From Candidatus Hydrogenedentes bacterium ADurb.Bin170 (GTDB lineage: Bacteria; Hydrogenedentota; Hydrogenedentia; Hydrogenedentales; CAITNO01): a stretch of DNA of 64,000 bases. The stretch spans positions 3,704 through 67,703 of the forward strand of contig MWCY01000007.1 of NCBI GenBank assembly GCA_002070275.1. Direction: 5' to 3'. Of this stretch, positions 3,198 through 44,692 are shown piece by piece. The translations under genes were made by a program, and so were the position numbers. The first letter of the stretch is position 1, and each line of letters starts with the position of its first letter. The notes under the pieces were generated by a model, which saw nothing but the letters and a program-made list of their open reading frames with translations, was not told where the DNA came from and ran no database searches.

Positions 3198-4244
3198 ATG
3201 CAGCGCGCTGTAGAAAATGTAAATGTTTTATCTTTGACTCCCCTGCCGCCGCCGGATGAGTTAAAAGCGCAATTTCCGCTTACGGAAAATACGGCGGATA
3301 CGGTTGCCAACTGCAGAGAGCAGCTTGCTGCCATCCTGGACGGGAAAGACAGGCGTTTTCTGGTGATTACGGGTCCCTGCTCGATTCACGACACTGAGGC
3401 CGGTCTGGATTATGCAAGGCGCCTGCATGCACTGAGCCGGGAGTTGTCCGACCGTCTCTTTATCCTGATGCGGGTTTATTATGAAAAACCGCGCACAACT
3501 GTCGGATGGAAGGGTCTTATTAACGATCCGGACATGAATAACAGTTATGACATCCAGAAAGGGCTTCGCAAAGCACGTCGTTTTCTGCTGGATGTTGCTG
3601 AAATGGGCTTGGGAGCGGCAAGTGAAGTGCTGGATCCCATTATTCCCCAGTATCTCGCCGATCTGATGTCTTGGGTTTCTATCGGAGCACGCACCAGCGA
3701 ATCACAGACACATCGTGAAATGGCGAGCGGACTGTCCATGCCCGTCGGATTTAAAAATAATACAAGCGGCAATTTGCAGAGTGCCATCGATGCGCTCATT
3801 GCCGCCGGCCGCCCCCACCATTTTCTTGGTGTTGACGGTGCCGGGCGTTCCTGTGTGGTTCATACCCGGGGCAACAGCTATGGACATGTGATTTTGCGCG
3901 GTGGGCGCTCCGGTCCCAATTATGACCCTGTCAGTGTGATTACAGTAGAAGACCAGATGCGGTCAGCCGGGTTGGAACCGCGAATTATTGTTGATTGCAG
4001 CCATGCCAATTGCGGAAAGCGCCCGCGCCTTCAGGCTCATGTGCTCCGTGACGTGATTCAACAGCGGCTCGAAGGCAACAAGAGCATTTATGGTGTTATG
4101 CTGGAGAGCAATCTTCAGGAGGGCAACCAGAAACTGAGCGGGAACGCATCGGATCTTAGGTATGGCTGCAGCGTTACCGATCCCTGCATAGACTGGGAGA
4201 TGACAGAGCAGCTTCTTCGGGAAGCGCACAGGAAACTGGCATAA
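3198..4244 (+). CDS. 3-deoxy-7-phosphoheptulonate (DAHP) synthase, class I alpha (AroG/F/H-like)
   Basis: 348 aa. The N-terminus (FPLTENTADTVANCREQ...RFLVITGPCSIHD) and core (KPRTTVGWKGLINDP, VDCSHAN) closely resemble E. coli AroG. Confidence 0.9.
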   Translation: MQRAVENVNVLSLTPLPPPDELKAQFPLTENTADTVANCREQLAAILDGKDRRFLVITGPCSIHDTEAGLDYARRLHALSRELSDRLFILMRVYYEKPRTTVGWKGLINDPDMNNSYDIQKGLRKARRFLLDVAEMGLGAASEVLDPIIPQYLADLMSWVSIGARTSESQTHREMASGLSMPVGFKNNTSGNLQSAIDALIAAGRPHHFLGVDGAGRSCVVHTRGNSYGHVILRGGRSGPNYDPVSVITVEDQMRSAGLEPRIIVDCSHANCGKRPRLQAHVLRDVIQQRLEGNKSIYGVMLESNLQEGNQKLSGNASDLRYGCSVTDPCIDWEMTEQLLREAHRKLA

Positions 4245-4258
4245 CCGTTTTTGACACC

Positions 4259-5689
4259 TTATACGCGTACGTCCGAATGCGTATCCAGGCTTGCGGTATG
4301 GCGTTCAAGAAAAGGATTGGCTTCCTGAACAAAGAACTCATCCACCTGTGACGGAGCGCGCCCGACAAATGCATCGAGCTTCAGCTGCTCCTCCATTTCT
4401 TCCCGGGTCATGTTAATTTGAGGGTCGGCAGCCAGCCGATCCAGCAGATCGTTGTCCGCTCCTTCCTCTTTGACCCGGCGTCCTGCTTCCTGAGCATGCT
4501 GCCGGATAACTTCGTGCAGCGTCTGACGGTCTCCTCCCTTTTGTACACACGCCATCAGGATGTTTTCCGATGCCATGAAAGGCAGTTCACTCCAGATTCT
4601 TTTTTCAATTACTTTGGGATAAACCCTGGGTGCTTCCATGACATTCAAGTACAAATTCAAAATGGCATCGGCGGTAAGAAAAGCTTCGGGAAGGCTGAGT
4701 CTGCGTATGGCGGAGTCGTCAAGCGTTCTTTCAAACCATTGTGTTGCCGTAGTGAATGCGCTGTGCAGCGGTGCGGTCATAAGAAAACGTGAAAGCGCAC
4801 AAATCCGCTCACTACGCATGGGATTGCGTTTGTACGGCATGGCGGAGCTGCCTACCTGCGAACGTTCGAAAGGCTCTTCCACCTCCTTGAGATTCTGAAG
4901 GAGGCGCATGTCTGTAGCAAATTTGTGGGCGGATTCTCCTATGCCTGCCAGCGCATTAAGGACCTGTGTATCTATTTTTCTGGTGTACGTTTGCCCGGCA
5001 ATAATGAAAGAACTTTCAAAGCCCAGTTTTTTAGCAACAAGATGATCAAGAGCCTTTACTTTTTCCGCATCCCCATGAAAAAGAGCGAGGAAAGAAGCCT
5101 GTGTTCCTGTCGCACCTTTGACGCCACGGCATCGCATGGATGCCAGAAGTTGTTCAATCTGAAGGCAGTCCAGAAGCAGATCCTGTGCCCAGAGGCATGC
5201 ACGTTTCCCCACAGTTACCAATTGCGCCGGCTGATAATGGGTAAATCCGAGCGTCGGCAGGGACTTGTATTGAAGCGCAAAGGCTTTGATTCGATTTAAT
5301 ACTCCTGCCGCTTTTGCAAGAATCAATTCCAGACCTTCCCGAATCAGAATAAGATCGGTATTATCTCCAACAAAGCAGCTGGTAGCCCCCAGATGGATAA
5401 TCGGACGTGCATTCGGCGCCAGATCGCCAAATGCATGAATGTGTGCCATTACATCGTGTCGCGTTTCTTTTTCATAAGCAGCTGCCTGTTCAAAGTCTAT
5501 CGTGTCAACATGAGCCCGCATCTCCTCTAGCTGCGCATCTGAAATGTCGAGCCCCAGTTCCTGCTCTGCTTCAGCCAGAGCAATCCAGCAGCGCCGCCAG
5601 GTGGAAAACTTTTTCTGTGCACTCCACAAACGTTTCATAGGATCGGTTGCAAAACGCTCAACCAGAGGAGAAACATAGAGATCACTCAT
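4259..5689 (-). CDS. purB: adenylosuccinate lyase (long form)
   Basis: 476 aa with the fumarate-lyase fold and the long PurB C-terminal extension. It carries the SSAMPYKRNP signature. Confidence 0.9.
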   Translation of the reverse strand: MSDLYVSPLVERFATDPMKRLWSAQKKFSTWRRCWIALAEAEQELGLDISDAQLEEMRAHVDTIDFEQAAAYEKETRHDVMAHIHAFGDLAPNARPIIHLGATSCFVGDNTDLILIREGLELILAKAAGVLNRIKAFALQYKSLPTLGFTHYQPAQLVTVGKRACLWAQDLLLDCLQIEQLLASMRCRGVKGATGTQASFLALFHGDAEKVKALDHLVAKKLGFESSFIIAGQTYTRKIDTQVLNALAGIGESAHKFATDMRLLQNLKEVEEPFERSQVGSSAMPYKRNPMRSERICALSRFLMTAPLHSAFTTATQWFERTLDDSAIRRLSLPEAFLTADAILNLYLNVMEAPRVYPKVIEKRIWSELPFMASENILMACVQKGGDRQTLHEVIRQHAQEAGRRVKEEGADNDLLDRLAADPQINMTREEMEEQLKLDAFVGRAPSQVDEFFVQEANPFLERHTASLDTHSDVRV

Positions 5690-8998: not shown

Positions 8999-10339
8999 GT
9001 GAAAAAAAACGAAAAAAAGATAATTTCCCGTCGCTCTTTTTTAAACAACGCCGGTCTTGCCATGGCAGCTCCATTGATTGTGCCGTCCACAGTTTTTGGC
9101 GCAAAAGCGCATAAAAGCCCGGGAAGCAAAATCACCATTGGAGTCATCGGTTCCGGCGGTCAGGCAAACGGGCTCACAGAAAATGCGATTAAACACAAAA
9201 ACACCCGCATTGTTGCCGTTTGCGATGTTGATCGCAGGCGCCTTGCCGAGGCAAAGTCAAAAGTGGATCATTATTATGATAATGAAGACTGTACTGTCTA
9301 TACAGACTATCGCGAAGTTCTGGCACGGGAAGACATTGATGCCGTTATTGTCGCTACCCCTGATCATTGGCATGCCCTCATTTGTGTAGAAGCCGCACAT
9401 CGGGGGAAAGATATTTATTGCGAAAAGCCCCTAACCTGGTCACTTGGTGAAGGACAGGCCGTTGTCAAAGCGGTTACAGAGAATAAGCGGGTGTTTCAGA
9501 CAGGCAGCATGCAGCGTTCCGGTAAAGATTTTAAAACTGCCTGTGAACTGGTGCGCAATGGATATCTGGGAAAAATTAAGCACATTCTGGTGGCATTGCC
9601 CAATGGCGGCAATGCGCTTTGGGTGGATGAATTCCCGCCTCCTCCTGCGGAATTGGACTGGGAGTTTTATGTGGGTCCTGCAGAATGGGCGCCTTATCAC
9701 GAAAAACGCTGTCATTGGGACTGGCGCTGGTGGATGGGTTTCGGCGGAAGTCAGATGATGGACTGGATCGGTCACCACGGTGATATCGCTCACATGGCTA
9801 TGAATTGGGATCATACAGGACCGGTTCATGTGCAGGGAGTCGCCTGGGAGATGAGCCCTGAAAGAAACAACTTATACAATGCCCCTCAGAAGTACCAGTT
9901 TGAATGCACTTATGCCGACGGAACAACCATGACTGTAGGCAGCTCCGACAAAATGCCCGATTTATTTAAAGAATGTGGAAGTCTGGGCACCATGTTTTTC
10001 GGTGATAATGATCAGTGGCTTTATGTGGACAGAAGCGGTATCAAGGCGAGCGATCCCGAACTGCTTCAAACGCGTCTGGGTGACACTGCTTTCCGCTTCA
10101 GGAAAGGCACGAACCATATGACCGATTTCCTGCAATGTATTGAAAGCCGTGAAGAATGTATTGCTCCGGTTTATGCCGGACACCGCTCTGCATCAATAGG
10201 ACATCTTGGAAAAATTGCCTGCACTTTGAATGTCGGTTTCAATTGGGATCCTGAAAAAGAAGTGATTACAGATAATCCTGCGATGAATGCATTGCTTACC
10301 CGCCAGTACAGAGGCGGCTGGTCTTTGGATGCTGTTTAA
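8999..10339 (+). CDS. Gfo/Idh/MocA-family NAD-dependent oxidoreductase with a twin-arginine (Tat) signal, GH109-like
   Basis: It has a Tat motif (SRRSFLNNAGLAMAAPLIV) followed by a Rossmann GxGxxG stretch (IGVIGSGGQA) and the Gfo/Idh/MocA core (DAVIVATPDHWH, EKP). The likely start is GTG 8999 with an AAGGAAAAG ribosome-binding site. The ORF-track ATG at 8927 is an alternative. Confidence 0.8.
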   Translation: MKKNEKKIISRRSFLNNAGLAMAAPLIVPSTVFGAKAHKSPGSKITIGVIGSGGQANGLTENAIKHKNTRIVAVCDVDRRRLAEAKSKVDHYYDNEDCTVYTDYREVLAREDIDAVIVATPDHWHALICVEAAHRGKDIYCEKPLTWSLGEGQAVVKAVTENKRVFQTGSMQRSGKDFKTACELVRNGYLGKIKHILVALPNGGNALWVDEFPPPPAELDWEFYVGPAEWAPYHEKRCHWDWRWWMGFGGSQMMDWIGHHGDIAHMAMNWDHTGPVHVQGVAWEMSPERNNLYNAPQKYQFECTYADGTTMTVGSSDKMPDLFKECGSLGTMFFGDNDQWLYVDRSGIKASDPELLQTRLGDTAFRFRKGTNHMTDFLQCIESREECIAPVYAGHRSASIGHLGKIACTLNVGFNWDPEKEVITDNPAMNALLTRQYRGGWSLDAV

Positions 10340-10398
10340 TCAGGCGGCTCCGGCTTTTGCATTCTTAACCGAACTTCTGAGCCGCACTATAAGGCAGT

Positions 10399-13300
10399 AT
10401 GTCTTTGTGTAAAAAGAGTTATTTTCTTTTACTGGCTTTTTTCTGCCTCCTGACAGCGGTGCCGTCCGTAAATGCGCTCCCTTCCTATGGCAAAAAGGCG
10501 GTTCCAGTTCCGGCAGGAACGGCACAGCCCTGGGGCAAGCCACTGGCGGGCGGTGCTGTAAAAGTATTGCTGGTTGCCCCGCAGCATACGTTGCAGGACG
10601 CTGCTGAATTAAAGAAACGTCTGGATGTAGACTGCAGGGTCGTTCCTTTATGGGATGCGGAGCATGCCGGTTACGATCCCATCGCCTATGGAACTATTTC
10701 ATCCGCCGAGACGGATGCGGAAGTTTTTTCACGGCTGGAAAAAGAGCTACGGCAGCCCGCTGATGTCCTGATTCTCGCAAATTTTAACATTTCCCTTCTT
10801 CCGGAGCGGATTTTGTCCGAAGTACTGTTTAAAGTTTCGCAAGGTACCGGGCTTCTAACTGCTTTTGACCGATCTCCCGTCGATGGCCCACTGGCTGCTT
10901 TTTTTGACAACCTTCAGGAGGAAGCGGATACAGATTCAATAAGCGGCGGTATAGGCGAATGTGCTTTTCCGGGCGGGCTGGAGCTTCGCCAGATTATTCG
11001 CTCTTATGTGCATGGTAAAGGGAAGATAGTCTGTCTGGATTATCCCGGTGATTTTCCCCGACGAAACGCTCTGGTTCAGTCCCCCGCCGATCCTTATGAC
11101 CTGGAAAGCGCCTGGGAGGAAAATGCCTGGTCTTTTGTCGTTCGTGCCATCTGTTACGCCGCAGGACGGCGTCCTGAAGTCAGAATAGCGCGTATCGAGG
11201 ACGGTGCACCTTCGGGACCTGCTGAAGATGAGATTCCGCCGGATTTTTACCCTGAATTTATTCAGGCCATGAAAGATTCAGCCGTTTCGCAACCCTCCCG
11301 TCCTTTTGTCATTCGCCTTAACAAACCGGCAGATAAAAAATACAATGTGGAATTGCAGATAAGGCGCCCCGGCAGCAGTACCCGCATCACCTATGAAGAG
11401 GCAAATGCTTTTTCCAAAGATTCCGAGTTTCATATTGTTGAAGTGCCTGCCGGTCCGGGACCCTGTTTATTTGATGTCTGGCTGAAAGACCGCAGCGGAA
11501 TTACCGACTGGTTTACGGCGCTTCTGCAGGTGCCCGGCTGGCCTGATTTTTATCAGCTGGAACTTGAGAAACAGTGGCTCATGCCCAATGACTCTTTGGA
11601 TATTTCTGCCAAAGTGCGTCCCTTTGCCAATCAGTCCCGCCAGGCCTGCCTTTATGCCCGGGCTACAGATGGCTTCGAACGGGTTGTCGCGCAGTCTGTG
11701 GAAAGTGTCGGAAGCGACGGCGGCACTGCAACAGTACGGCTCCATTTTACCGATCTTATTTCGCCGCTGATTCGGCTGGAGGTCTATGCGGTCGAAGGCG
11801 GTCCCCGGAGCTTTTCAGAAACAGAGCTGCATTCCGCCTACCGGGAAGTGCGTTTCCTGAGTGTGCGCCAGCGGCTGGAGCCTCCTCAAATGGAACTGGG
11901 CGCTTCCCTGCCGGCACCCTCTGAATATGGCGATCTGTCTCTGCTGAAAATGTTGGCGCAGGAAGGAGTGCGTACCGTTCATGCTCCCGCCGGAGAAAGT
12001 ACGATCATCCGTGTTTCCGAAAAAGGTCTAACGCTGCTGCCTGAACTGGAGCATATCTCCGTTAATGAGGCATTGGATGGAAAGTACAGAGTCCCCTGCC
12101 TGAATGACCCATCCTACCGGATTTCTCTTGAGGAAACGCTCAAAACGGGAACGCTGCGCCATTGGGCGGGAACCCGTGGGCGCTATTCTTTGGGTAACGG
12201 CAATGTACTGTGTGCTACGGAGGAGGCTGTATGTCGGTGCGGATACTGCCTTGAAGCGTGGCATCAGGTGCTTCGGGAGAAGTACACAAGCCTGGAAGCC
12301 TTGAACCGGCAATGGGGAACGCATTTTTCTGAATGGGAGCAGATCGATACCGTCGACGTTCCTCCTGTCAACGAACAGACCCGGACCGTCTCTTACCAGG
12401 TGGATTTCAGCACTTTTATGGACAGTCAGTTTGCCGGATTTCATCAGTGGCTCCATGAGCAGATACGGCTGATTGATGGCTCAGCTGTCGCCGGAGCACG
12501 TTTTTTTTCAGATACCAACCCTTCTCACGGATACTGCTGGCCTGAGTTATGTCGGGCTCTGGATTTTGTCATTGCCGATTACAGCCCCCTTATTCTCGAG
12601 AAAATCGCCTCTTATACCGCACCGGGCAACTGGAACGGTCTGGTGCTGCACCCTTCTGATGCCGGACAAAACGGTGCGGCATTTCTGCAAATTCCCTGGC
12701 AGATGCTGACCCATCAGATTCCTGTCTTGTGGCTTGAAGCCTTGTCAGGCGAAGCAGAAAAAGCAGACGGGAACACCTGGTTTGATGTACAGGGTTCTCT
12801 CTCTGAAGCGTTGACAGCGATAACCCGTACTGTGCGACAGTTACAGGATATGATTGCCCCTCTGATTCTTGCTTCTGAAAAGAAACCTCCTGCAATCGCT
12901 GTCTATGACAGTCACCCTTCCAGGCATCTTCCAAAATCTGTATCCGGGTATAATACTACCTTTCTGGATTCACAAAATGCTGTGTCCGCCTGTTTGCGCC
13001 GGAGCAACCGGGACTTTGCTTTTATTGATAAAGAACGACTGGACGGTTTGAGGCAGGATACGTTTTCCACTCTGATTCTTCCTTTTTGTGTCGCACTGGA
13101 TGATGAAGAAACGGAGGCGATATTTACTTTTGTTGCCCGGGGCGGAACAGTTGCTGCCGACGTGCTTCCCGGAAATTTTGATACGCATGGAGGAAAACGG
13201 CTGAATAACCGTTTTGCATCTCTTTTTGGCGTTGATCAAAAACCGGACAGTCGCCAGTGTACAGAGCTGCTTGTCACTACGGAAGACGTTGAAGGGAGGA

Positions 13301-14072: not shown

Positions 14073-15146
14073 TTATTGCGGAGCAATGCCGCCTTTTTTC
14101 CGTCCTCCGGGCCCGGTTCCGGGAATACGACCGATTCGCCTGATCCTCCCTTTCATACAGGCGTGGCAGTCCTCGGCCGCTTCGTCAATACATGCTTTGG
14201 CTGGGTATATTTCGTAGAGGGCTCTGTATTGGGGCGGCGTGAGGTTGGGCATGACAATGTTTGCACCTCTTGATAACCCCAGTTCCCTGCCCAGCGCCGT
14301 GTTAATGGTGGCGAGAGCGGTCGTGCTGGGTATATTGGCTTCGGGGCATATCAACCGGGTCAACGCCACTGTTTTATAGGTCATGCCTTCCGTATTGGGC
14401 ACCTGCTCTCCATCAGGAGCCGATTCCAGTTCGCCACGTCCCAGAGGAGTTTCGGGATGGGCTATAAACGGGCCGACGCCGATCATATCAAGATCGAGAT
14501 CTTGAAACAGCAGAATATCCCGGGCAAGGATGGAATAATTCTGACCGGGAATACCTACCATTACACCACTGCCCGCTTCATACCCTAATTGCTTAAGGCG
14601 TCTCAGGATAGCAGGTCTGTCACTGATCTCCTGTCCTTTCGCAGGCGGATGAATACGCTCGTAAAGCGCTCTGTCGGAAGTTTCAAAACGAAGAAGATAG
14701 CGATCTGCTCCGGCAGTGCGCCACTCGATCAGGTCTTCGTCCGGGCGTTCCCCCAGACTCAGGGTGACAGCGAGGTTAGTTTCCTTTTTAATGGTTTTTA
14801 TGATTTCAGCCAGCCAGTCGCGCTTGATACCGTAGTCTTCTCCTGCCTGAAGTACCACGGTTCCATATTCAAACCCTACAGCCTTGTGCGCACAGGAAAG
14901 AATTTCGTCCCTGGTGAGGCGGTAGCGCTCTACACTGCCATGTCCTGCGCGCAGTCCGCAATAGGCGCAGGCACGGATACAGTAGTTGGAAATTTCGATC
15001 AGACCGCGAAGGTGTACCTGATCTCCCACATGGCGGCGCCGGGTCTCGTCCGCCGCAGCCCATAACAGTTTTAAACGCTCCGGATCTGTTTCGCGGAGCC
15101 ATCCTTCGATTTCTTCCTGACTTTTATGTTGGAGAAAATCAGACAT
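14073..15146 (-). CDS. hydE: [FeFe]-hydrogenase maturase HydE (radical SAM, BioB-like)
   Basis: 357 aa with a CxxxCxxC motif (CIRACAYCGLR) and BioB/HydE-like length. An extra C-terminal Cys pair is present (DCHAC). It sits immediately downstream of hydF. Confidence 0.7.
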   Translation of the reverse strand: MSDFLQHKSQEEIEGWLRETDPERLKLLWAAADETRRRHVGDQVHLRGLIEISNYCIRACAYCGLRAGHGSVERYRLTRDEILSCAHKAVGFEYGTVVLQAGEDYGIKRDWLAEIIKTIKKETNLAVTLSLGERPDEDLIEWRTAGADRYLLRFETSDRALYERIHPPAKGQEISDRPAILRRLKQLGYEAGSGVMVGIPGQNYSILARDILLFQDLDLDMIGVGPFIAHPETPLGRGELESAPDGEQVPNTEGMTYKTVALTRLICPEANIPSTTALATINTALGRELGLSRGANIVMPNLTPPQYRALYEIYPAKACIDEAAEDCHACMKGRIRRIGRIPGTGPGGRKKGGIAPQ

Positions 15147-15199
15147 AAAACTTGTTCATCCTGTGTTTGCAGAGCATTTGCTGAAGATAGACCGTCGGC

Positions 15200-16456
15200 T
15201 TACGCTTCAGTGTTTTTTGCCTTCAAATACAATTTGTGCTTCTCATAGGCCGCCAGTGCATCAGGAAAAGGCTCAAGAGCCCGTTCAAAGATACCGAGAC
15301 TGTACGCAATAGTCAATCCGTAATTAGTAACAGGAATACCTGCTTTCCTGCAACGGAGAAGCCGGTTCAGCATGGCACGGCGATTGGTGACGCAAGCGCC
15401 ACAATGGATAACCAGTTTGTAAGGGCTGAGATCCATTTTGAAGTCATGTCCCTGTACCGAATCAAAGATAAGTTCGCCTTGAACATATTTCATAAGCCAC
15501 TGTGGAATTTTAACACGGCCTATGTCATCTTCTATCGGATGATGGCTGCATGATTCTGCAATCAGCACCCGGTCGCCCGGTTTGAGACTGTCAATAGCCA
15601 GAGCGCCTTCCACCTGAGTAACCAGATCGCCGCGATATCTTGAAAAAAGAATCGAAAAACCCGTCATTGGAATATGAGAAGGGGTATCTGCCGCTACTTT
15701 TAAAAACGCCTGCGAATCCGTTACTACCAGTTTAGGCGGCTCTTTTAATTTGGCGAGTGTAGCCGCAAGCCCCTTGTCTGTTGTCACCAGGCAGGACGCA
15801 TCTCCGTCCAGAAGGTCCCGGATGCTTTGCACCTGAGGCATAATCAATCGCCCTTTAGGCGCTTCTTTATCGATGGGTGTTACCAGTACTGCCAGCTCAC
15901 CGGCGCCCACCAGGTCACGGAGGATCACCGGTTGCTCGACAAAATCCGCTGGTGCACTATCCAATAAGGCCTGCCTGAAGTCACCCAGTCCTTCTCCGGT
16001 AATAGTGCTGAGGCAGAGCGAAGCAATTTTTCTTGCAGAAAGCATGTTCAGAAGTGCCGTATCCGGGCGTTTTATATCTGATTTATTAAAAACGGCAATA
16101 ACGGGTACTTTCCGCTGGTCCAATTCTGAAAAGAGCATCTCTTCATAAGCGCCCCACTCACCTTCCTGGCAAACGATGACACCGAGATCGACCCGCTCGA
16201 AAACAGCCCTGGTTCTTTCTTTCCTGAGTTCGCCCAGGGTGCCCTCGTCGTCGAGCCCTGCCGTGTCGATAAAAAGGACCGGCCCAAGTGGCAGCAACTC
16301 CATCGCTTTTTCTACCGGATCCGTAGTGGTGCCGGCCACAGGAGAAACAATGGACACCTGCTGTGCCGTTACAGCATTGAGCAGACTGGATTTTCCTGCA
16401 TTGCGCCTTCCGAAAAGACCGATATGAAGACGCATCGATTTAGGGGTGCTTCGCAT
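15200..16456 (-). CDS. hydF: [FeFe]-hydrogenase maturation GTPase HydF
   Basis: N-terminal GTPase P-loop (GRRNAGKSSLLNA). C-terminal cluster motif ESCSHHP...(about 46 aa)...HCGAC, as in HydF. An alternative start at 16435 is possible. Confidence 0.85.
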   Translation of the reverse strand: MRSTPKSMRLHIGLFGRRNAGKSSLLNAVTAQQVSIVSPVAGTTTDPVEKAMELLPLGPVLFIDTAGLDDEGTLGELRKERTRAVFERVDLGVIVCQEGEWGAYEEMLFSELDQRKVPVIAVFNKSDIKRPDTALLNMLSARKIASLCLSTITGEGLGDFRQALLDSAPADFVEQPVILRDLVGAGELAVLVTPIDKEAPKGRLIMPQVQSIRDLLDGDASCLVTTDKGLAATLAKLKEPPKLVVTDSQAFLKVAADTPSHIPMTGFSILFSRYRGDLVTQVEGALAIDSLKPGDRVLIAESCSHHPIEDDIGRVKIPQWLMKYVQGELIFDSVQGHDFKMDLSPYKLVIHCGACVTNRRAMLNRLLRCRKAGIPVTNYGLTIAYSLGIFERALEPFPDALAAYEKHKLYLKAKNTEA

Positions 16457-16709
16457 GAGCTCATCTCAATCAGACAGAAACAAATTCTGTCGCAGTTGCA
16501 GATTTGTGTTTTTCGGTGAATTGGACCTGTTTAAAAGCTTATGGTACCATAATAAAATAAAACCGTGTTGCTTCAAAACAGGGCTTCAGAAGTTTTTGCT
16601 TTCCGGTACGCCCTTCCAGGTGTGTAAACAAAATATCAGGCAAAAAAATTTAGCATTCAAAGAAAATTCTTTCCTCTTTTCTCTAAACACAGATCCAAAA
16701 AGGAATTCC

Positions 16710-17354
16710 ATGAAAACGATTGCTCAGATAATCGGTGCTGTTGTTCTTATTGCCGCTCTGGTTCTTGCAGTGCCGGTGATTCATTACTTTCCCATGTACA
16801 ATTTCCGAACCGTCGAAGAAGGGGCGTTTTATGGGTCTCGTCAGATGGGAGGAAAAGCAATGGAGCGAATCATTAAGAAAAGAGGTATAGGCACTGTCAT
16901 CAATCTTCGAGGCGAGCAAACGGATAGTGACTGGTACGATCGGGAAGTAGCCGCATGCAAGCATATGGGGATTCAGCATGTTAATTTCGGATGGTCGAAA
17001 AACAGCATTCCGGAACCGGAATCGCTTGCCGCTTTTCTTGATCTCATGGAAACAGGGCAAAAGCCTTTTCTAGCTCACTGCCAGGGAGGAACGCATAGAA
17101 CCGGTGTTGCCGCCGCCGTTTATCTTCTTTTGAAAGGCGCAGATACAGCAACAGCACGAAAGCAGTTCCGGATCGGTTTTAACGATGCACCCATCGGCGA
17201 ACTGGTAACGCTTTACGAAGGGAGCCCCAAGCCTTTTAAACAGTGGGTTCTCGAGGACTATCCCGCAAAATATGAACAGTGGAAGAAACAGCGGGAGGCA
17301 CAGAAGGAGGCCGCAAAAGTGCCCGCCCTTCTTGCAGCATCTGCGCTGCGCTAG
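16710..17354 (+). CDS. membrane-anchored protein tyrosine / dual-specificity phosphatase-like protein
   Basis: N-terminal transmembrane helix (IIGAVVLIAALVLAV). CX5R active-site loop (HCQGGTHRTG). The start is the ATG at 16710 with an AAAAAGGAA ribosome-binding site. The ORF-track N-terminal extension from 16446 was rejected. Confidence 0.7.
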   Translation: MKTIAQIIGAVVLIAALVLAVPVIHYFPMYNFRTVEEGAFYGSRQMGGKAMERIIKKRGIGTVINLRGEQTDSDWYDREVAACKHMGIQHVNFGWSKNSIPEPESLAAFLDLMETGQKPFLAHCQGGTHRTGVAAAVYLLLKGADTATARKQFRIGFNDAPIGELVTLYEGSPKPFKQWVLEDYPAKYEQWKKQREAQKEAAKVPALLAASALR

Positions 17355-17366
17355 GCGGTGTCTTTT

Positions 17367-18032
17367 TTATGCTATGGGCGTGAGTACGTAAATAATTACG
17401 GCGAAAAAGTGAATGGCGCTGCCACCCATAACGAAGCAGTGCCAAATTGCGTGATTATAAGGAACGCGCTCATTGGCATAGAAAAAGACGCCAAATGTAT
17501 AAAGCAGCCCGCCTGCAAGCATCATCAGTAAACCGCCGACAGGTATATGGGTAATGGCGGGTTTTATGGCGACCAGAACGATCCAGCCCATGGCAACGTA
17601 CATGGCTGTAGAGACTTTATTGAAGCGTCCCGTGAAGAAGGCTTTGAAGGCACAGCCGACACAGGCAATCCCCCATACGACTCCAAAAAGCGCCCAGCCA
17701 GTGGTTCCTCGGAGCGACACCAGCAGAAAGGGTGTGTAGGTGCCGGCAATCAGCAGATAGATGGCACAATGGTCGAATACCCGCAGGACTTTTTTCACAT
17801 TGAAACAGGGCACAGCATGATAGAGGGTCGATGCCGCATAGAGTGCAATCAGCGAACTGCCGAAAACAATAACAGCAACCAGGCTCATACTGTCTTTAAG
17901 TGATACCGCCCGCAGAATCAGCCAAACCAGCCCGGCAACACTCAATCCGAAACCAACGGCATGGGTGCCGCTGTTCATAATTTCTTCCAGTACAGTATAT
18001 TCTTTATGTGTTTTAGTATTCTGAGTTTTCAT
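17367..18032 (-). CDS. hemolysin-III / PAQR-family membrane protein
   Basis: Seven predicted transmembrane segments, with conserved His and Asp residues in the pattern of Hly-III (YqfA-like) proteins. The start was set at the internal MKTQNT (18032). Confidence 0.7.
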   Translation of the reverse strand: MKTQNTKTHKEYTVLEEIMNSGTHAVGFGLSVAGLVWLILRAVSLKDSMSLVAVIVFGSSLIALYAASTLYHAVPCFNVKKVLRVFDHCAIYLLIAGTYTPFLLVSLRGTTGWALFGVVWGIACVGCAFKAFFTGRFNKVSTAMYVAMGWIVLVAIKPAITHIPVGGLLMMLAGGLLYTFGVFFYANERVPYNHAIWHCFVMGGSAIHFFAVIIYVLTPIA

Positions 18033-18134
18033 TGTTTGCTCCGATTCGTTACAGTAAAGTATAGCATACCTGTCGGAAAAAAATCGTCTCACGAACTTGC
18101 GTTCATCAATAAAAGAAAAGGCAGGCAGATTACT

Positions 18135-19622
18135 TCAGAAAGAAATAAGGTCTGTCTCCTGCAAGTGGCTCAAATGCGCCCGCAGCTGCAACAAAGCAAA
18201 GGGATGCATGGACTCCGGTGTATCGTCATAAGCTTCGGCAAGAAGAGCGGCTTCACTTCGGGCGCCCTGCTCCCAGGCTGTTTTAATTTTTGTTTCGCGC
18301 ATTATCCGGTGCTCCAGAGTTTTCTGAAAAAAAGCGGGCCCTTCCCCCTCCATGAGCGGGGCGCCATGACCGGGCACAGTTAAAGCAGCCGGGATTTTGC
18401 CCAGACGTTCAAGTCCCGCCATGTAGAGCCCCATATCTCCATGCTTATCCGGATTAATCATAATGGTTCCCGGGTTCGCAATCATGTCACCGCAGAGGAG
18501 CGCTCCGGTTGTTTCTTCGAAATAACAGAGATGGCCTGGATGATGACCGGGGGTATGAAGACATCGAACAGACCAGGGGCGGGAGCCCGGAATTTCAATA
18601 AAGTCTCCCTTCTCCAGTGCTTCTGCGTTTTGAAATGAGCCGAGAGACGCCGGATGTCCGTACACTGTGACGTTGTAGCGTTTCGAAAGAGCTTCTGCTG
18701 CGGCACAATGGTCGGGATGATCGTGGGTCAGCAAAATGCCCGCAGGTGTTCCACCAACGTTTTCGCAGACTTCGTCTATATGCGTAAAAAGACGGGAAAT
18801 CTCAGATGTTTCTGAAGCACCGGGATCAACGATATAAATGGACTCTTCGCCGATGAGCACACAGTTTGTATGGGTAGCGGGCGGCAAGGTGCAGCTCTGC
18901 AGCGGTACCAGATGAATGCCGGGAAATGGCTCAATGTAATCCAGCAGAGTGTTGCTGAAACCAGGTGTGTGACGCAGGCGCTTTAATGCTTCCGGAAGCG
19001 GAAAGGTATGCAGCCTTTGCAAAACAAAAACTACCGGTGTGGAGACGTGCATGCTCTTTCCGTCCCGGCGTTTGAGTGCTTCGGCAGGGGTGATCCATTC
19101 GACGCCGACTATTTCAGCATGCGCTCCCATGGGCGCAGCAAAACAGGGCTTCGAGGTGCTGCAGAAAAAATAAGAAGTATCGAAACGGATAGGTGAAAAA
19201 GAGGGCGTCACCCATCGGCCTGCAGGAGAAAAATTCAGGTAGTCAATAAATATGTTCTTTTTTTCGAGAAAGGCTTCAAAAACGGCGGGCTCGCTGACAG
19301 TTTTCTCACGCAGGCTTTGCAGCGATCCGTTTTCCGCTTCCGTCAAATCGGGAAGCAGTATGCCTGTTTCTTCAAAAAGTTCCCGCACAGCTGTGGTGAG
19401 CAGGCGCGCGCTCCTGAGGTCTGGCGCATTGATAACCCGGCTGCCTGTGTCAGCATCTGATAGGCTCCCCCCCGGAAAGGCGTGATGCCCGCCCATAAAA
19501 GGAAGCGATGGGTTTCGTTTTACGAATAAAACACGTTGACGCTGTTGTTCGTACAGTATGATTACAGCAGCGAGGCGTGGCGACGCTCCTTCTGTACTGG
19601 TGTAGCTAAGCCAATTTGCCAT
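18135..19622 (-). CDS. NUDIX hydrolase fused to an MBL-fold metallo-hydrolase
   Basis: The N-terminal Nudix box reads GGSLSDADTGSRV...AVRELFEETGI. The C-terminal metallo-beta-lactamase motifs are THDHPDHC, a downstream HTPGH, and conserved Asp and His residues. Confidence 0.75.
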   Translation of the reverse strand: MANWLSYTSTEGASPRLAAVIILYEQQRQRVLFVKRNPSLPFMGGHHAFPGGSLSDADTGSRVINAPDLRSARLLTTAVRELFEETGILLPDLTEAENGSLQSLREKTVSEPAVFEAFLEKKNIFIDYLNFSPAGRWVTPSFSPIRFDTSYFFCSTSKPCFAAPMGAHAEIVGVEWITPAEALKRRDGKSMHVSTPVVFVLQRLHTFPLPEALKRLRHTPGFSNTLLDYIEPFPGIHLVPLQSCTLPPATHTNCVLIGEESIYIVDPGASETSEISRLFTHIDEVCENVGGTPAGILLTHDHPDHCAAAEALSKRYNVTVYGHPASLGSFQNAEALEKGDFIEIPGSRPWSVRCLHTPGHHPGHLCYFEETTGALLCGDMIANPGTIMINPDKHGDMGLYMAGLERLGKIPAALTVPGHGAPLMEGEGPAFFQKTLEHRIMRETKIKTAWEQGARSEAALLAEAYDDTPESMHPFALLQLRAHLSHLQETDLISF

Positions 19623-19699
19623 AATAGTGATCCTGAACTTATATATGAAAAAGCTATGCTAGGCAATTCAGCTGTAAAAAGCAAACTTCTCCGGAGAGG

Positions 19700-20533
19700 A
19701 TGCTCGTGAATTCATATCATTTTGACGGAACGGACCGCTATCATCTGGATGCAGAACTAAAGGCAGTGGTAAATATTGCGCTTGCCATGGAAAAACCTCT
19801 TCTGTTGACCGGTGAAGCAGGAACAGGAAAGACGCAGCTGGCGCTGGAAACCGCCAGGGCTCTCGGCCTCCCTGTCGAAATCCTACGCTGCAAATCCACG
19901 ATTAAAGGAGAAGAAGCCTGTTACGTACAGGATACAGTGCTGCGGTTGAATGATGCCCGCTTCGGTTCAGGAGAAAGCGGAAGGCGGGTTGACCAGTTTT
20001 ATGACTATGTGATCTGGGGCCCTATAGGAAGGGCCTTTCGCGCCGACAGAAAAGTAGTGCTTCTGCTGGATGAAATTGACAAAACAGAGTCGGACGTGCA
20101 GGACAATCTGCTGGACATTCTTGAAGAATGCCAGTTCACTATCCGTGAGGTGAACGAAACAGTGAAGGCGCAGATCCGACCGGCAATCTTTATCACATCC
20201 AATGCTAAAAGAGAATTGTCCGATCCTTTTCTCCGCAGATGTTTCTGTCACCATATCGCTTTTCCAGCTCCTGAGGAAATGCGTGCCATTCTTGCGCTGC
20301 ATTATCCCAATACGCATCCCGAGCTGATTGAGACAGCGCTTAAAATATTTTATGAGCTTCGGGATCGGGGTTTTGAAAAACCGCCAGCCACAAGCGAACT
20401 GATTGACTGGATTGGCGCACTTGAGCGGGACGGAAAAATGCCTGATCCTGAATTCCCGCCTCTAACCGGACTTCTTTTAAAACGCAGTGCTGATATTCTG
20501 AAATACCGGCAGCGGAGATTCGGCAGGCATTAG
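19700..20533 (+). CDS. MoxR-like AAA+ ATPase, CoxD-like (AAA_5)
   Basis: Walker A motif LLLTGEAGTGKT and Walker B motif VVLLLDEIDK. About 277 aa, which is typical of CoxD-type ATPases. Confidence 0.7.
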   Translation: MLVNSYHFDGTDRYHLDAELKAVVNIALAMEKPLLLTGEAGTGKTQLALETARALGLPVEILRCKSTIKGEEACYVQDTVLRLNDARFGSGESGRRVDQFYDYVIWGPIGRAFRADRKVVLLLDEIDKTESDVQDNLLDILEECQFTIREVNETVKAQIRPAIFITSNAKRELSDPFLRRCFCHHIAFPAPEEMRAILALHYPNTHPELIETALKIFYELRDRGFEKPPATSELIDWIGALERDGKMPDPEFPPLTGLLLKRSADILKYRQRRFGRH

Positions 20534-20536
20534 TAT

Positions 20537-21772
20537 ATGGCGATGCCCTCAAACAGAGATGATAACAGCAAAGGCTATACAGTGCTCTTTGCACCTTTTC
20601 TGTATCTCCTTCGTGATTACGGGCTGCCGGTTGGGCTGCGTGAACTGCTGGAATTGAATCAGGGGCTGCAAAAAGGGATTGTATCGACGCTGGACGACCT
20701 GTTCATTTTTTCGAGGCTGGTTTTTGTAAAACGGGTTGAATATGCCGATGCCTTTGAACGCGCTTTTGCCTTGTACTTTTATGATATCGATATTCCCGCC
20801 GTACAGGAAGGCGACGATGCGCTATTCAGCACAGAGCAATTCCGGCGGTGGCTGGAAGAAGAAATCCGCACAGGGCGTATGCCGAGGCATGCCTTCTGGC
20901 ATTATGAGCCCGAAGAGTTGATGAAACGGTTCTGGGACACGCTTAAACAGCAGATGGAAGAGCATCACGGCGGAAGCCGATGGATAGGGACAGGAGGCAA
21001 CTCCCCTTTCGGTAACAGCGGGAATGCCTCACGGGGAATACGGGTAATGGGCGCTTCAAAAAATCGTTCTGCCTTGCGTGTGATCGGTGACCGTCGTTAC
21101 GTCGAGTATTCCGATAGGAATCAGCTGCGTGAGGAAAACCTCCGGCAGGCACTGGCATCCATGAAACACATGCAGCATGCGGGACCCTTTACGCGCCTGA
21201 ATTTGGATAAAACCGTTACGATGACTGCCCGGAACGGCGGTGAGATAGATCTTGTTTTTGAGCGGGATCTGCGCGATAAAATCAGTGTGCTTCTGCTGAT
21301 TGACAACGGCGGATATTCCATGCTGCCATATATCGAAATCACCCGTATTCTATTTTCTAAAATGCATGAGCGGTTTGAAGATCTGCAATGCCTCTTTTTC
21401 CACAATACCATTTATGAAAAAGTGTGGACAGATTTTCGCCGTACCAGCCCTTTAGATACGGAACAACTGCTATTGAGGCGACCGGATACGAGACTTGTGA
21501 TTGTGGGAGATGCATCCATGGCGCCGGAAGAGCTGGAAGCGCGCGGCGGTGCTCTCTCCAATTTCAGTGACTTCAGCAGCCCGCCCAGCAGTACCTGGCT
21601 GCACAAGCTATCACGCCGTTTCCCATGGTCCTGCTGGCTTAATCCCATACCCCGGGAATACTGGATGCGGACACACGGTGCCTATACCATTGAAAATATT
21701 GGCAGAATTTTCCCTATGGTGGATATGAGTCTCGGAGGCATCAAAGAAATGGTCAGTCGCCTGTCCGGCTGA
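20537..21772 (+). CDS. VWA-domain protein, CoxE-like
   Basis: 411 aa, starting 4 bp after the CoxD-like gene. It has CoxE-like length and a C-terminal VWA-like region. The CoxD/CoxE pairing is an established gene couple. Confidence 0.55.
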   Translation: MAMPSNRDDNSKGYTVLFAPFLYLLRDYGLPVGLRELLELNQGLQKGIVSTLDDLFIFSRLVFVKRVEYADAFERAFALYFYDIDIPAVQEGDDALFSTEQFRRWLEEEIRTGRMPRHAFWHYEPEELMKRFWDTLKQQMEEHHGGSRWIGTGGNSPFGNSGNASRGIRVMGASKNRSALRVIGDRRYVEYSDRNQLREENLRQALASMKHMQHAGPFTRLNLDKTVTMTARNGGEIDLVFERDLRDKISVLLLIDNGGYSMLPYIEITRILFSKMHERFEDLQCLFFHNTIYEKVWTDFRRTSPLDTEQLLLRRPDTRLVIVGDASMAPEELEARGGALSNFSDFSSPPSSTWLHKLSRRFPWSCWLNPIPREYWMRTHGAYTIENIGRIFPMVDMSLGGIKEMVSRLSG

Positions 21773-41962: not shown

Positions 41963-44692
41963 TTGGCAACCTCGGATTCTAAAGACAAAAAGGAATTGTC
42001 CTTTTTTATTCTTTTTCTAGTGCTGGGTCTGTTTTTCCTGTCGGGTGCCTGCTCCCTTGTGTATCAGGTCGTATGGACCCGGAAGCTGGCACTGCTTTTC
42101 GGTGTCACCTCCCATGCTGTAAGCACCGTCCTGAGTGTTTTTTTTCTGGGGCTTGGTGCAGGCAGTTTTGCTGGCGGACGGATTGCCGACCGAAGCAGGC
42201 ATCCGCTGCGGCTTTACGGTCTTTTTGAATGCATTGTCGGGGTGAGCGCTGTCCTGGTGCTTTTGCTGCTCTCTGTCAGTGAGTCCTGGATCCCGACTGC
42301 ACTCCGGCTCTTTGATTTTTCCAGAACCACAGGCGTTCTTTTACGCGCAATACTGAGCTTTCTTCTTCTCTTTATTCCTGTAAGTCTCATGGGCGCAACC
42401 CTGCCTCTCTTAACACGCTTCGCTGTGCGCGCTCAGGAGAAAACCGGGTTTCACGTCAGTATTCTCTATGCAGTGAATACTTTCGGCGCAGTTGCCGGGT
42501 GCGCCACAGCAGGCTTCGTGCTGATTGCGTCTCTGGGATTTTCAAAAACTGTATATCTTGCCGCTGCCCTTAATATAGGCGCCGGACTGGCTGCCGTTCT
42601 GCTCTCTCTGTTGAAGGAGCCTTTAACGCAATCGGCGGTTCCCGAAAACGATAATGCTACACCGGGGTGTGGCAGCCGGGGTGGTGCCGGTCCGATGCGG
42701 CTGCTGATATTTGCAACGGCACTTTGCGGCTTTTGCGGGCTTGCCGCTGAAGTAGTGTACACGCGGCTCCTTTCCATTGTTTTTCTGGGAACCACTTACG
42801 CCTTCACCACTATGCTGACAGCATTTCTTTGCGGTATTGGCGCTGGTGGCGGTTGCGCCGCTCTGATCCAGCGGAAAATGCGCAAAGAAAATGCGCTGCT
42901 TCTTGTGGGGCTTATTTCGGGCGGTATAGCTGTTGCCATGCTCTGGAGTCTTCCGTGGATTGCTGGACTTCCGGACCGTTTTCTTGACCTTCAGCGCAGC
43001 ACCGGGCTTGTGTGGGATGCCACACTGCGCGGCACCTTTTTTCTTGCCTTTCTAACATTATTTCCCATGACTTTTCTTTTTGGAGTGGCATTTCCTCTGG
43101 TCATCGGGGCGGGCGGATTATGGCGAAAATCAGTGGGCAGTCTGGTGGGACTGATGAACGGCGCCAATACGCTGGGCGGTGTTGCCGGTGCGATGGCGGG
43201 CGGCTTTTTTCTTCTGCCTTTGCTGGGGAGCCAGAACAGCATAACCTTCCTCGCAGTTCTTTTGCTGGTAAATGGTCTTGCCTTGATTGTACTGGGCAGA
43301 ACATCGGGTAAAAGTATCCGGGTCTCAATCGCTTCAATACTTCTTCTTTGTTTTTTTGTTACATTCCTTTTTTTGCCTGCGGACGTGAATCTGGCTTTAA
43401 ATAAAGGATATATGCCCCGGGATCATGAAGTGCTTTATATGAAGGAAGGCACAGAAGGAACCGTTGCCGTGAGCGGTCCCGTTGGTGCACAGCATGGCGA
43501 AGACCGGGTTTTATGGATTAACCGGGTGCAGGCGACCACTTCCATTGAACGGGGCGTTAAAATGAACCGTTTGCAGGGCGTTTTGCCGCTTCTTTTTGAT
43601 CGAACCTGCGAGCGGGTTCTCTTCATGTGCTTTGGATCCGGCATTACCTGCGGTACGCTCGCACTCTCGCCCTTTGAACAGATCGATGCGGTAGAGATTA
43701 GTCCGGAAGTACTCGCAGTAGCTCCATACTTTGATAAAGACAATCTGGGTGTCCTCTACAATCCGGCTGTTTCTTTTCATATTGATGACGGCAGAAATTA
43801 TCTGCTCAGAACAGACCGGAAATATGACCTCATTACCTTTGAACCCATGCCACTGGCGCTGGCAGGTGTCTCCACTTTTTACACAGAAGAGTACTATCGT
43901 TTGTGCCGAAAATGTCTTGCTTCTGGCGGCATCGTATCTCAATGGATCCCTTTGCACAGCAATGACCCTGAAATGGTGAGATCGCTGGTGTTTACTTTTA
44001 TCTCCGCTTATCCTGAATATTGTGCGTTTTTTGTCAATGCGGATCTTTTTCTGCTGGGGTCGGACATGCCGTTGCGCCTGAATTATGCCAAGGCAAAGGA
44101 ACGGCTGAAAAATTCTGTTCTTGCAGATGCGCTGGAAAAATCCGGGCTTGGTGATCTCGCTGAAATTATGTCCTTCTATCTCTTTGATAAACAGGCACTG
44201 GATGCTTACGTATCCGGGGGTGTCAGTATGAGCGATGATCTGCCCTGGGCGGAGTTTACCGCGCCCCGGCTTGTCTATGCCCGTCTTGTGCCTGAAGCGG
44301 TAGATACTCTTTTGCCTTTTATCAGCAATCCGCTGGAAGCAGTGATTCCCGGGAGTATTACTGCTGAAGAACGCCAGCGCCTGGAAAGACGCTGCCACTC
44401 CCGCCGCCTTGATTTTCCTGCATTGAAAGAATATTACGGAGGCAGCATGTTTGATGACAGGGCGGCCGATGGTTTCGCTGCCTCTCTCGAAGCTGATCCG
44501 GAAAATCTGAATGCGCGCTATTACCTGAAAACGATTGTGCTGGCACAGGGAGAGCGTTTTCTTCAGTGGGATGACTGGGAGCGGGTTATAGCCCTTACGG
44601 GGAAAGCACTTCGCTTCATGCCGGATGATAAGGATTTGACTGAACTTTATCAGGCGGCGGAGCAAAAGAGAGACTTGTCTGCGGGCAGATAA
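41963..44692 (+). CDS. fused polytopic membrane (MFS-like) / spermidine-synthase-like / TPR protein
   Basis: At least 12 N-terminal transmembrane helices. The central region (VLFMCFGSGITCGTLA...EISPEVL...DLITFEP) resembles the PABS/SpeE fold. The C-terminal repeats are TPR-like. The likely start is TTG 41963 with a GGGAG ribosome-binding site. Confidence 0.7.
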   Translation: MATSDSKDKKELSFFILFLVLGLFFLSGACSLVYQVVWTRKLALLFGVTSHAVSTVLSVFFLGLGAGSFAGGRIADRSRHPLRLYGLFECIVGVSAVLVLLLLSVSESWIPTALRLFDFSRTTGVLLRAILSFLLLFIPVSLMGATLPLLTRFAVRAQEKTGFHVSILYAVNTFGAVAGCATAGFVLIASLGFSKTVYLAAALNIGAGLAAVLLSLLKEPLTQSAVPENDNATPGCGSRGGAGPMRLLIFATALCGFCGLAAEVVYTRLLSIVFLGTTYAFTTMLTAFLCGIGAGGGCAALIQRKMRKENALLLVGLISGGIAVAMLWSLPWIAGLPDRFLDLQRSTGLVWDATLRGTFFLAFLTLFPMTFLFGVAFPLVIGAGGLWRKSVGSLVGLMNGANTLGGVAGAMAGGFFLLPLLGSQNSITFLAVLLLVNGLALIVLGRTSGKSIRVSIASILLLCFFVTFLFLPADVNLALNKGYMPRDHEVLYMKEGTEGTVAVSGPVGAQHGEDRVLWINRVQATTSIERGVKMNRLQGVLPLLFDRTCERVLFMCFGSGITCGTLALSPFEQIDAVEISPEVLAVAPYFDKDNLGVLYNPAVSFHIDDGRNYLLRTDRKYDLITFEPMPLALAGVSTFYTEEYYRLCRKCLASGGIVSQWIPLHSNDPEMVRSLVFTFISAYPEYCAFFVNADLFLLGSDMPLRLNYAKAKERLKNSVLADALEKSGLGDLAEIMSFYLFDKQALDAYVSGGVSMSDDLPWAEFTAPRLVYARLVPEAVDTLLPFISNPLEAVIPGSITAEERQRLERRCHSRRLDFPALKEYYGGSMFDDRAADGFAASLEADPENLNARYYLKTIVLAQGERFLQWDDWERVIALTGKALRFMPDDKDLTELYQAAEQKRDLSAGR

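Follow-up and report, generated by a model that had tools for sequence, protein, structure and literature searches.

A conserved bacterial fusion of a Nudix hydrolase and an MBL-fold metallo-hydrolase with homology to NUDT19 and LACTB2, and its possible role in (acyl-)CoA breakdown

The gene at 18135..19622 on the minus strand of the window, the 64,000-nucleotide stretch of contig MWCY01000007.1 of Candidatus Hydrogenedentes bacterium ADurb.Bin170 analysed here, encodes a single polypeptide in which a Nudix hydrolase domain is followed by an MBL-fold (metallo-beta-lactamase) metallo-hydrolase domain and a winged-helix tail. It lies between a gene for a membrane protein and a divergently transcribed gene pair (Table 1). 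The open reading frame (ORF) list and the translation show one unbroken frame of 495 codons with an ATG start, with AGGA 8 nt before it, and no stop or frameshift. Three Pfam domains score above their gathering scores: NUDIX at residues 16-182 (E 1.9e-8, 34.9 bits against 21.1), Lactamase_B at residues 250-419 (E 2.6e-19, 70.4 bits against 22.7) and BLACT_WH (PF17778) at residues 459-493 (E 2.3e-6, 27.9 bits against 22.8). That a Nudix and an MBL domain share one polypeptide had been proposed in a sequence-only reading of this DNA, and the intact frame and the Pfam domains bear it out. The Nudix box and the HxHxDH motif quoted there are both present (R80-I88 and H300-H305), while the BLACT_WH domain was not mentioned. 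Databases name the protein only 'MBL fold metallo-hydrolase'.

AlphaFold2 modelled the full chain, from a 117-sequence alignment, with a predicted local distance difference test (pLDDT) of 95.7 and a predicted template-modelling score (pTM) of 0.93, and the model has no disordered segment; the Nudix domain alone reached a pLDDT of 92.4. The high pTM suggests that the Nudix and MBL domains would pack as one rigid body. In the model, the Nudix domain is enlarged by a helical insert (98-121) and by three C-terminal helices (179-216). The sequence-only reading had placed an uncharacterised linker of about 100 residues between the two domains, which turns out to be wrong: residues ~160-216 are the C-terminal helices of the Nudix domain, aligning with those of PDB 3QSJ and NUDT19, residues ~230-250 are the first MBL strands, and the real connector has only about 13 residues (217-229). 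The near-invariant stretch LPPATHTNC (246-254) is part of these first MBL strands.

Table 1. The fusion gene, its parts and its neighbours in the window
Feature	Coordinates	Strand	Remarks
Fusion gene	18135..19622	-	complete; stop codon 18135-18137; 495 aa; Nudix-MBL-winged-helix
Enlarged Nudix domain	18975..19580	-	residues ~15-216; AlphaFold2, 3QSJ and NUDT19 alignments
Pre-box motif L32-G52 (LFVKRNPSLPFMGGHHAFPGG)	19467..19529	-	resembles NUDT19 version of CoA-Nudix signature
Nudix box with 14-residue insertion	19359..19469	-	G52-x5-D58-x21-R80 E81 L F E84 E85 T G87 I88
Inter-domain connector	18936..18974	-	residues 217-229, ~13 aa; AlphaFold2 secondary structure
MBL-fold domain	18348..18935	-	residues ~230-425; Pfam Lactamase_B, all five motifs
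HxHxDH zinc-binding signature	18708..18725	-	H300-D-H302-P-D304-H305; sequence
Helical/winged-helix tail (BLACT_WH)	18138..18347	-	residues 426-495; starts with H438-R439-x-x-R442-E443
Radical-SAM protein	14073-15146	-	
HydF	15200-16456	-	GTPase + HydF dimer and tetramer domains
DSP-type phosphatase	16446-17354	+	
TrhA/HlyIII-family membrane protein	17367-18092	-	42 bp downstream of fusion gene; 102 bp by public call
Divergent spacer, 77 bp	19623..19699		between fusion gene and AAA gene
MoxR/CoxD-type AAA+ ATPase	19700..20533	+	Pfam AAA_5 8e-13
411-aa partner of AAA gene	20537..21772	+	VWA_CoxE-like by transitive homology only
Glycosyltransferase, SIS, UDP-glucose dehydrogenase genes	from 21753 onwards		

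P0001, a protein of 99% identity whose gene has the same neighbours, is encoded on contig DAONZQ010000002.1, from a Candidatus Hydrogenedentes metagenome-assembled genome, and on an independent ENA assembly. The homology search gave more than 120 full-length clusters, whose members have about 490 aa, carry these three Pfam domains and are 36-99% identical. When GTDB was scanned with a single genome for each species, relatives of the fusion protein proved to be encoded in at least 504 species. The best 80 of these at least 504 species matches, all of which extend over almost the whole protein, were taken as loci; they come from Hydrogenedentota, Planctomycetota, Acidobacteriota (including Blastocatellia, Pyrinomonadaceae and Chloracidobacterium), Myxococcota, Sumerlaeota, Eisenbacteria and others. 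The sequence-only reading had proposed to check how the architecture is distributed and whether its neighbourhood is conserved. On the first point the answer is clear: the Nudix-MBL architecture is old, is spread over several phyla and has been retained in hundreds of species.

Conservation was read from 81 proteins, namely that of the window and those rebuilt from the 80 loci, with identity down to 33%. Invariant in all 81 are G51, G52, R80, E81, E84 and E85 on the Nudix side, D266, H300, H302, D304, H305, H360, D379 and H419 on the MBL side, and R439 and R442 in the C-terminal tail, where H438 is kept in 79 of 81. Since the catalytic residues are invariant, both catalytic centres are under purifying selection, and the protein is a true bifunctional enzyme in which neither half is dead. 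As the family is large and both active sites are strictly conserved, it is also a tractable target for the assignment of function.

The canonical Nudix box has 23 residues, Gx5Ex7REUxEExGU. In the window protein, the catalytic helix REUxEExGU is present as R80-E81-L-F-E84-E85-T-G87-I88, and the Nudix fold is supported by AlphaFold2 and Foldseek, but the spacing is not canonical, with 21 residues rather than 7 between D58 and R80. The acidic residue of Gx5E is kept as D or E in all aligned sequences and is D58 here. The distance from GG to R is 26-27 in 79 of the 81 proteins against 13 in the canonical box, and the 14-residue insertion is constant across the fusion family.

This enlarged domain resembles that of NUDT19. 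A human NUDT19 sequence, used as a lead only and checked against the protein database, aligned colinearly with residues 30-207 of the fusion protein (E 2e-14); it is 95-99% identical to NCBI and UniRef proteins named 'acyl-coenzyme A diphosphatase NUDT19'. With a NUDT19 profile built from database sequences only (vertebrate), hhalign gave 99.6% and E 8.9e-25 for the full profiles; restricted to the Nudix parts it gave 99.8% and E 2.9e-28, with 178 columns aligned. The pre-box motif reads VLLxRRNxxLxFMGGHHVFPGG in the fusion family and LLLLQRSxxSGFMPGAHVFPGG in NUDT19, so that FM(G/P)G(H/A)H(V/A)FPGG is common to both. Also common to both are the helical insert, a W-x-T-P...R-F-D-T motif and the C-terminal helices, and the insertion in the Nudix box falls at the same alignment site; that of NUDT19 has 45-49 aa and no known function (PMC12894707). 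Judged by these profile matches, the Nudix half is a homologue of the NUDT19 family of acyl-CoA diphosphatases.

Among solved structures, the closest Nudix protein is 3QSJ, which matches the single protein at E 8e-12 and the family profile at E 8e-29 and has a template-modelling (TM) score of 0.75; the alignment covers query residues 27-211, and the function listed for 3QSJ is 'Undetermined' (PMC5389931). Apart from 3QSJ, the family profile found just one solved Nudix, 1NQY, a coenzyme A (CoA) pyrophosphatase (E 2e-6, residues 11-67), and residues 14-60 match the CoA pyrophosphatase model NF007980 weakly.

The C-terminal extension of NUDT19 (about residues 272-375) is missing in the fusion protein, which has the MBL domain in its place. 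The full-profile hhalign alignment ran on into this extension before the profiles were trimmed. The idea that the extension is a vestige of the N-terminal half of an MBL domain is not supported, as the trimmed profiles gave E 0.01-0.06 and a probability below 4%. Several stand-alone bacterial members of the Nudix family end in '...LLPGExGY...', resembling the 'LLPGDELY' of NUDT19, and the C-terminal extension of vertebrate NUDT19 may, by this likeness, be of bacterial origin. We also observed that the stand-alone proteins (P0320, P0357, P0362, P0368, P0332, P0333 and others), of 250-300 aa, end in '...R(V/F)(L/I)(L/M)PGE(P/T)GY...' and '...G(T/E)RW...', like the 'HLLPGDELY' within the C-terminal extension of vertebrate NUDT19.

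The MBL half has all five motifs of the fold: D266, H300xH302xD304H305, H360, D379 and H419. H360 is the motif-III ligand and H356 is not, being Y or F in 11 sequences and Y in LACTB2. By sequence and by fold, human LACTB2 (PDB 4AD9) is the best solved relative, matching the single sequence at E 3e-15 and the family profile at E 1e-32. The profile match covers residues 249-488 including the winged helix, the alignment to 4AD9 extends to residue 490, and Foldseek gives E 1e-18 and a target TM of 0.77 over 284 columns. The family profile also matches YcbL, deposited as a hydroxyacylglutathione hydrolase (glyoxalase II; E 3e-23), Thermus TTHA1429 (E 2.5e-20), Burkholderia structural-genomics proteins (E ~1e-16 to 1e-17), the 2-aminobenzoylacetyl-CoA thioesterase PqsE (E 7e-15) and, through the signature motif only, RNase J (E 7.5e-8). 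By these profile comparisons the MBL half belongs to the glyoxalase-II-like branch, apart from RNase J and RNase Z. The MBL fold is known to hydrolyse CoA and glutathione thioesters, and the human MBL protein MBLAC2 is an acyl-CoA hydrolase (PMC7949124).

To account for both halves, we put forward tentatively that the fusion protein is a bifunctional hydrolase with two metal centres that takes apart (acyl-)CoA-type molecules, a reading that we hold to be plausible, though short of probable. The Nudix site would cleave the diphosphate of CoA to yield 3',5'-ADP and (acyl-)4'-phosphopantetheine, as NUDT19 does, and the MBL site would hydrolyse a thioester or ester, either in that same molecule or in what the Nudix site releases, as GloB, PqsE and MBLAC2 do. 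The proposal leaves the order of the two steps unspecified. In this way acyl-CoA or CoA-like thioesters that are aberrant or in surplus would be irreversibly disposed of and their parts recycled. We infer that in the fusion the two sites would act on one molecule and that the hydrolytic steps would be coupled. Two sequential steps on one nucleotide-derived substrate, pyrophosphate cleavage and then (thio)ester or phosphodiester cleavage, had been suggested in the sequence-only reading, with CoA derivatives among the compounds to be assayed. This suggestion, which is partly supported, fits a NUDT19-family Nudix domain and an MBL domain of the thioesterase branch.

Some anecdotal support for this proposal comes from a single case in which the two domains are encoded apart. 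A search with the Nudix domain among 1.84 billion cluster representatives gave 691 clusters (50% identity) at E<=1e-10. Among the best 150 of these 691 clusters 145 were checked, and about a third (49) have a near-complete MBL domain; the remainder are stand-alone proteins of 130-400 aa, fragments or truncated fusions. At one locus (L085, 623-1791), a complete stand-alone NUDT19-like Nudix protein (P0289, 234 aa) is encoded convergently to a separate Lactamase_B+WHD_BLACT gene, and the two genes overlap by 27 bp. They lie on opposite strands, and this split cannot be a frameshift artefact. Only this locus shows separate, convergent Nudix and MBL-winged-helix genes, and the stand-alone proteins P0362, P0332 and P0351 have no LACTB2-like neighbour. 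As the evidence from split pairs is single, the link between Nudix and MBL rests mainly on the fusion itself. Other apparent splits were set aside: on ENA contig L083 the Nudix-MBL region (4001-5565) is probably frameshifted, and P0263 and P0301 turned out to be fusions that the end of the contig cuts short. On the same ENA contig a Pirin gene (2348-2946) is split too, each of the two genes being called as two ORFs. This suggests indel errors in the assembly and is a caution against reading 'split' fusions from contigs of this kind.

The other anecdotal support comes from the contig of P0006 (L092, 5541-7180), a close relative of the window protein. Here an AMP-binding gene of the acyl-CoA-ligase type, on the same strand as the fusion gene, starts 35 bp downstream of it. 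The gene calls divide it into two ORFs of 120 and 300 aa, and it may be frameshifted. No other neighbour seen hints at acyl-CoA metabolism.

Several points weigh against a role in CoA breakdown. Everything beyond the domain assignment is what we infer from homologues. The CoA-Nudix signature, which we take to be the PROSITE-type pattern LLTxR[SA]x3[RK]x3Gx3FPGG, agrees in spacing with L32-F-V-K-R36-N-PSL-P-FMG-G45-HHA-FPGG52, and by our own reading only 6 of its 9 specified positions match. The fold search was rejected as a means of placing the domain among CoA diphosphatases, for it does not discriminate: after 3QSJ, the Nudix-only model found generic Nudix folds only in Foldseek, with NUDT7 at rank 45. 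On the MBL side, the protein is not a glyoxalase II, since it fails the cut-offs of the GloB equivalogs TIGR03413 (61 bits against 200.8) and NF007597 (41.9 against 421). The demonstrated activity of LACTB2 is so far that of a single-strand endoribonuclease only, in vitro, and its mutants H216A::R217T and R220T lose activity (PMC4770246); these three required residues align with H438, R439 and R442 and, by that alignment, are kept in the fusion family. Finally, we surveyed the ORFs within 6 kb in the 80 loci by all-against-all clustering and scanned 144 immediate neighbours with Pfam, and among these neighbours there is no cross-phylum partner, whether from CoA or lipid metabolism or otherwise.

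The LACTB2 data also speak for the main alternative, in which RNA takes the place of CoA. The Nudix site could remove a cap-like group from the 5' end of an RNA (dephospho-CoA, another nucleotide-metabolite cap or pyrophosphate), after which the LACTB2-like MBL site would cut the RNA, so that the enzyme would serve in RNA 5'-end surveillance. The tail residues H438, R439 and R442 would fit such a nuclease; however, N116 and E118, which LACTB2 also requires (PMC4770246), lack conservation in the fusion family, where the loop that holds them is variable and gapped. On the Nudix side, mouse Nudt19 takes m7G, Gppp and dephospho-CoA (dpCoA) caps off RNA in vitro (PMC7337524, Table 1), whereas the reported physiological role of NUDT19 is CoA degradation (PMC12894707). 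Some homologues have been named 'endoribonuclease LACTB2' by JGI annotators, but the MBL domain is far closer to the glyoxalase-II type than to the beta-CASP and RNase Z ribonucleases, and the Pfam scan of the fusion protein found no RNA-binding domain (KH, S1). The AAA_33 family includes polynucleotide kinases, and in 9-13 Blastocatellia loci a gene for a polynucleotide-kinase-like P-loop kinase of this family lies directly downstream of the fusion gene; no RNA-metabolism gene recurs as a neighbour across phyla. Taken together, we consider RNA 5'-end surveillance unlikely, albeit with a real chance of being right.

At 25-30% identity, homology is a notoriously poor guide to the specificities of Nudix and MBL enzymes, and the two sites could have chemically unrelated activities or act on a class of substrate other than CoA or RNA, such as an ADP-ribose or nucleoside diphosphate (NDP)-sugar derivative, a dinucleoside polyphosphate or a nucleotide-linked secondary metabolite. 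The 'Undetermined' function of 3QSJ (PMC5389931), the generic fold matches that come after it and the uninformative neighbourhoods would all sit well with such a substrate. Against unrelated activities stand the strict co-conservation of both sites and their rigid predicted packing, which argue for coupling, and against another substrate class stand the profiles, which point to the NUDT19 family and to no other Nudix family. We regard a function of this kind as improbable.

The genes across the divergent spacer suggest another possibility, which could be added to any of these functions. MoxR-VWA pairs load or exchange metals of other metalloenzymes, and the fusion enzyme might be a client or partner of the neighbouring AAA+/VWA_CoxE-like pair, for example in metal loading or exchange. 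The sequence-only reading had described these neighbours as a CoxD-like/CoxE-like ATPase-VWA couple at 77 bp. The spacer is as it said and the AAA domains are clear; the best NCBIfam match of the ATPase is the MadB-family AAA-type ATPase, with 118 bits, below the 475-bit cut-off. The 411-aa protein, on the other hand, has no match of its own in Pfam, VWA included, or in the PDB. Its 'CoxE-like' label is indirect, because PF05762 VWA_CoxE is carried only by its homologues (about a third of those 56-80% identical to it). Its N-terminus matches the MadC family VWA weakly (E 0.003), and by our own reading its MIDAS (metal ion-dependent adhesion site)-like stretch is DNGGYS, not the canonical DxSxS. 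On the 99%-identical public contig, the AAA gene has been annotated with a start 6 nt further on, and the spacer has a weak sigma-70-like match on the minus strand (19649..19621), which is a match to the consensus only.

In favour of a partnership, the divergent pair adjoins the fusion gene in the window, in loci L001-L004 and in L091 (spacers of 40-85 bp in L001-L004 and L091), while the other flanking genes differ among them. In L001-L004 the ATPase is 81-85% and the 411-aa protein 72-73% identical to that of the window, while the fusion protein is about 50% identical. At L091, with a spacer of 53 bp, the fusion protein (P0040) is only 44% identical and lies outside the window's clade in a quick neighbour-joining tree, and yet it keeps the pair. 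A second, independent adjacency of this type occurs in 7-8 Pyrinomonadaceae (Acidobacteriota) loci (L048, L057, L059, L072, L074, L075, L076, L079), where genes for a Mg-chelatase-like AAA protein of ~490 aa and for a VWA_2 protein of ~445 aa lie on the same strand downstream of the fusion gene, at about 9500-13000 in each locus; these two proteins are non-orthologous to the window's pair, with no detectable homology between the two pairs.

Nevertheless, the window's pair is absent at the other 76 genome loci, many of them from Hydrogenedentota, and is also absent beside P0029 and P0006, the latter inside the window's clade. Since AAA+VWA pairs are common in these genomes (1408 homologues), a chance adjacency in two clades is plausible. 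We therefore rejected the pair as a family-wide partner, and on the second point that the sequence-only reading had proposed to check, conservation of the neighbourhood, the outcome is negative: the pair adjoins the fusion gene only patchily, in some lineages of Hydrogenedentota, and is no obligatory partner. That it serves the fusion enzyme is, in our estimate, very unlikely. Last, the reading that the fusion is an artefact, in which an error of sequencing or assembly has run two neighbouring genes together, is refuted and deserves next to no credence, as the frame is continuous, a 99% identical protein occurs on independent NCBI and ENA assemblies, the same architecture is found in at least 504 species and the single-chain AlphaFold2 model is confident, and nothing was found in support of it; the earlier statement that there is no stop or frameshift holds.

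Across the 80 loci, recurrent partners are clade-specific only: the DnaJ-domain membrane protein (16), the AAA_33 kinase (9-13), LolA/ABC genes and a polyphosphate kinase (3). In the conserved Blastocatellia block (L037, L039, L041, L043, L045-L047, L050, L056, L060, L062, L064, L066, L071 and L078), a divergent gene for the DnaJ-domain membrane protein lies upstream of the fusion gene, on the far side of a LolA-like gene and ABC-transporter genes. In the PADLOC defence models, neither the fusion protein nor the 411-aa protein has a match, and the ATPase matches as a generic AAA only. In sum, the fusion gene looks like an independent, single-copy, housekeeping gene.

Two observations concern the window at large. 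The HydF and radical-SAM genes (14073-16456, minus strand), taken together with a further two radical-SAM genes on the 99% identical public contig (L081), of which one has a BATS domain, look like a set of [FeFe]-hydrogenase maturases, in keeping with a Hydrogenedentes origin. The AT skew of the window is strongest at 42001-44000 (-0.267), in the region of a 909-aa ORF (41963-44692, plus strand), which by our own reading has a long hydrophobic, probably polytopic-membrane N-terminal part and then a soluble C-terminal part; the skew is an ordinary effect of codon composition and not a special element.

How does the fusion protein compare with known systems? By homology, it is related to NUDT19 in its N-terminal part and to LACTB2 in its C-terminal part, as a strict member of neither family, and its halves are, by sequence similarity, the closest bacterial relatives of the two human proteins. 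NUDT19 (RP2p), the vertebrate peroxisomal acyl-CoA diphosphatase, shares profile homology over the whole Nudix domain, and differs in having an insertion of 45-49 aa where the fusion has 14 and a C-terminal extension of about 100 aa where the fusion has its MBL domain. LACTB2, reported to be a mitochondrial endoribonuclease, shares the five MBL motifs, the TPGHxxxH sequence, the BLACT_WH domain and the HRxxR(E) motif; it differs in being a stand-alone protein of about 26% identity with its own N116 and E118, whereas the fusion protein has a Nudix domain ahead of the N-terminal strands. The stand-alone Nudix protein of Alicyclobacillus acidocaldarius solved by structural genomics (3QSJ) shares the expanded form of the Nudix box and the helices at the C-terminus, without an MBL domain. 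The thioesterases GloB/YcbL, PqsE and MBLAC2 belong to the same MBL branch and have the same di-metal site, and they differ from the fusion protein in their C-terminal domain.

RppH together with RNase J/E makes up a two-protein bacterial pathway in which a Nudix enzyme converts the 5' end and the RNA is then cleaved, RNase J being a beta-CASP MBL nuclease. This sequence of Nudix and nuclease is the model for RNA 5'-end surveillance; unlike the fusion, it is made of separate proteins, and RppH matches the Nudix half only as a generic Nudix.

Each of the two domain families is known and their pairing is visible in databases, but full-text searches aimed at the fusion or at a link between NUDT19 and LACTB2 found no description of the former and no functional case of the latter. 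LACTB2 has a predicted peroxisomal targeting signal type 1 (PTS1) and has been seen in proteomes of peroxisomes, the compartment of NUDT19 (PMC8919083), while the fusion protein is bacterial, cytoplasmic and without a PTS1. It is conceivable, if on balance doubtful, that the fusion acts as a 'Rosetta stone' for these two poorly understood human enzymes and that, given their obligate fusion in hundreds of bacteria, enzymes of the NUDT19 and LACTB2 types generally act on one substrate or in one pathway. If this were true, the physiological substrate of LACTB2 would be a CoA or phosphopantetheine thioester and not RNA, or else NUDT19-type enzymes would primarily be CoA-RNA decapping enzymes that feed a LACTB2-type nuclease. 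The substrate of the bacterial fusion would therefore bear directly on how human NUDT19 and LACTB2 relate to each other.

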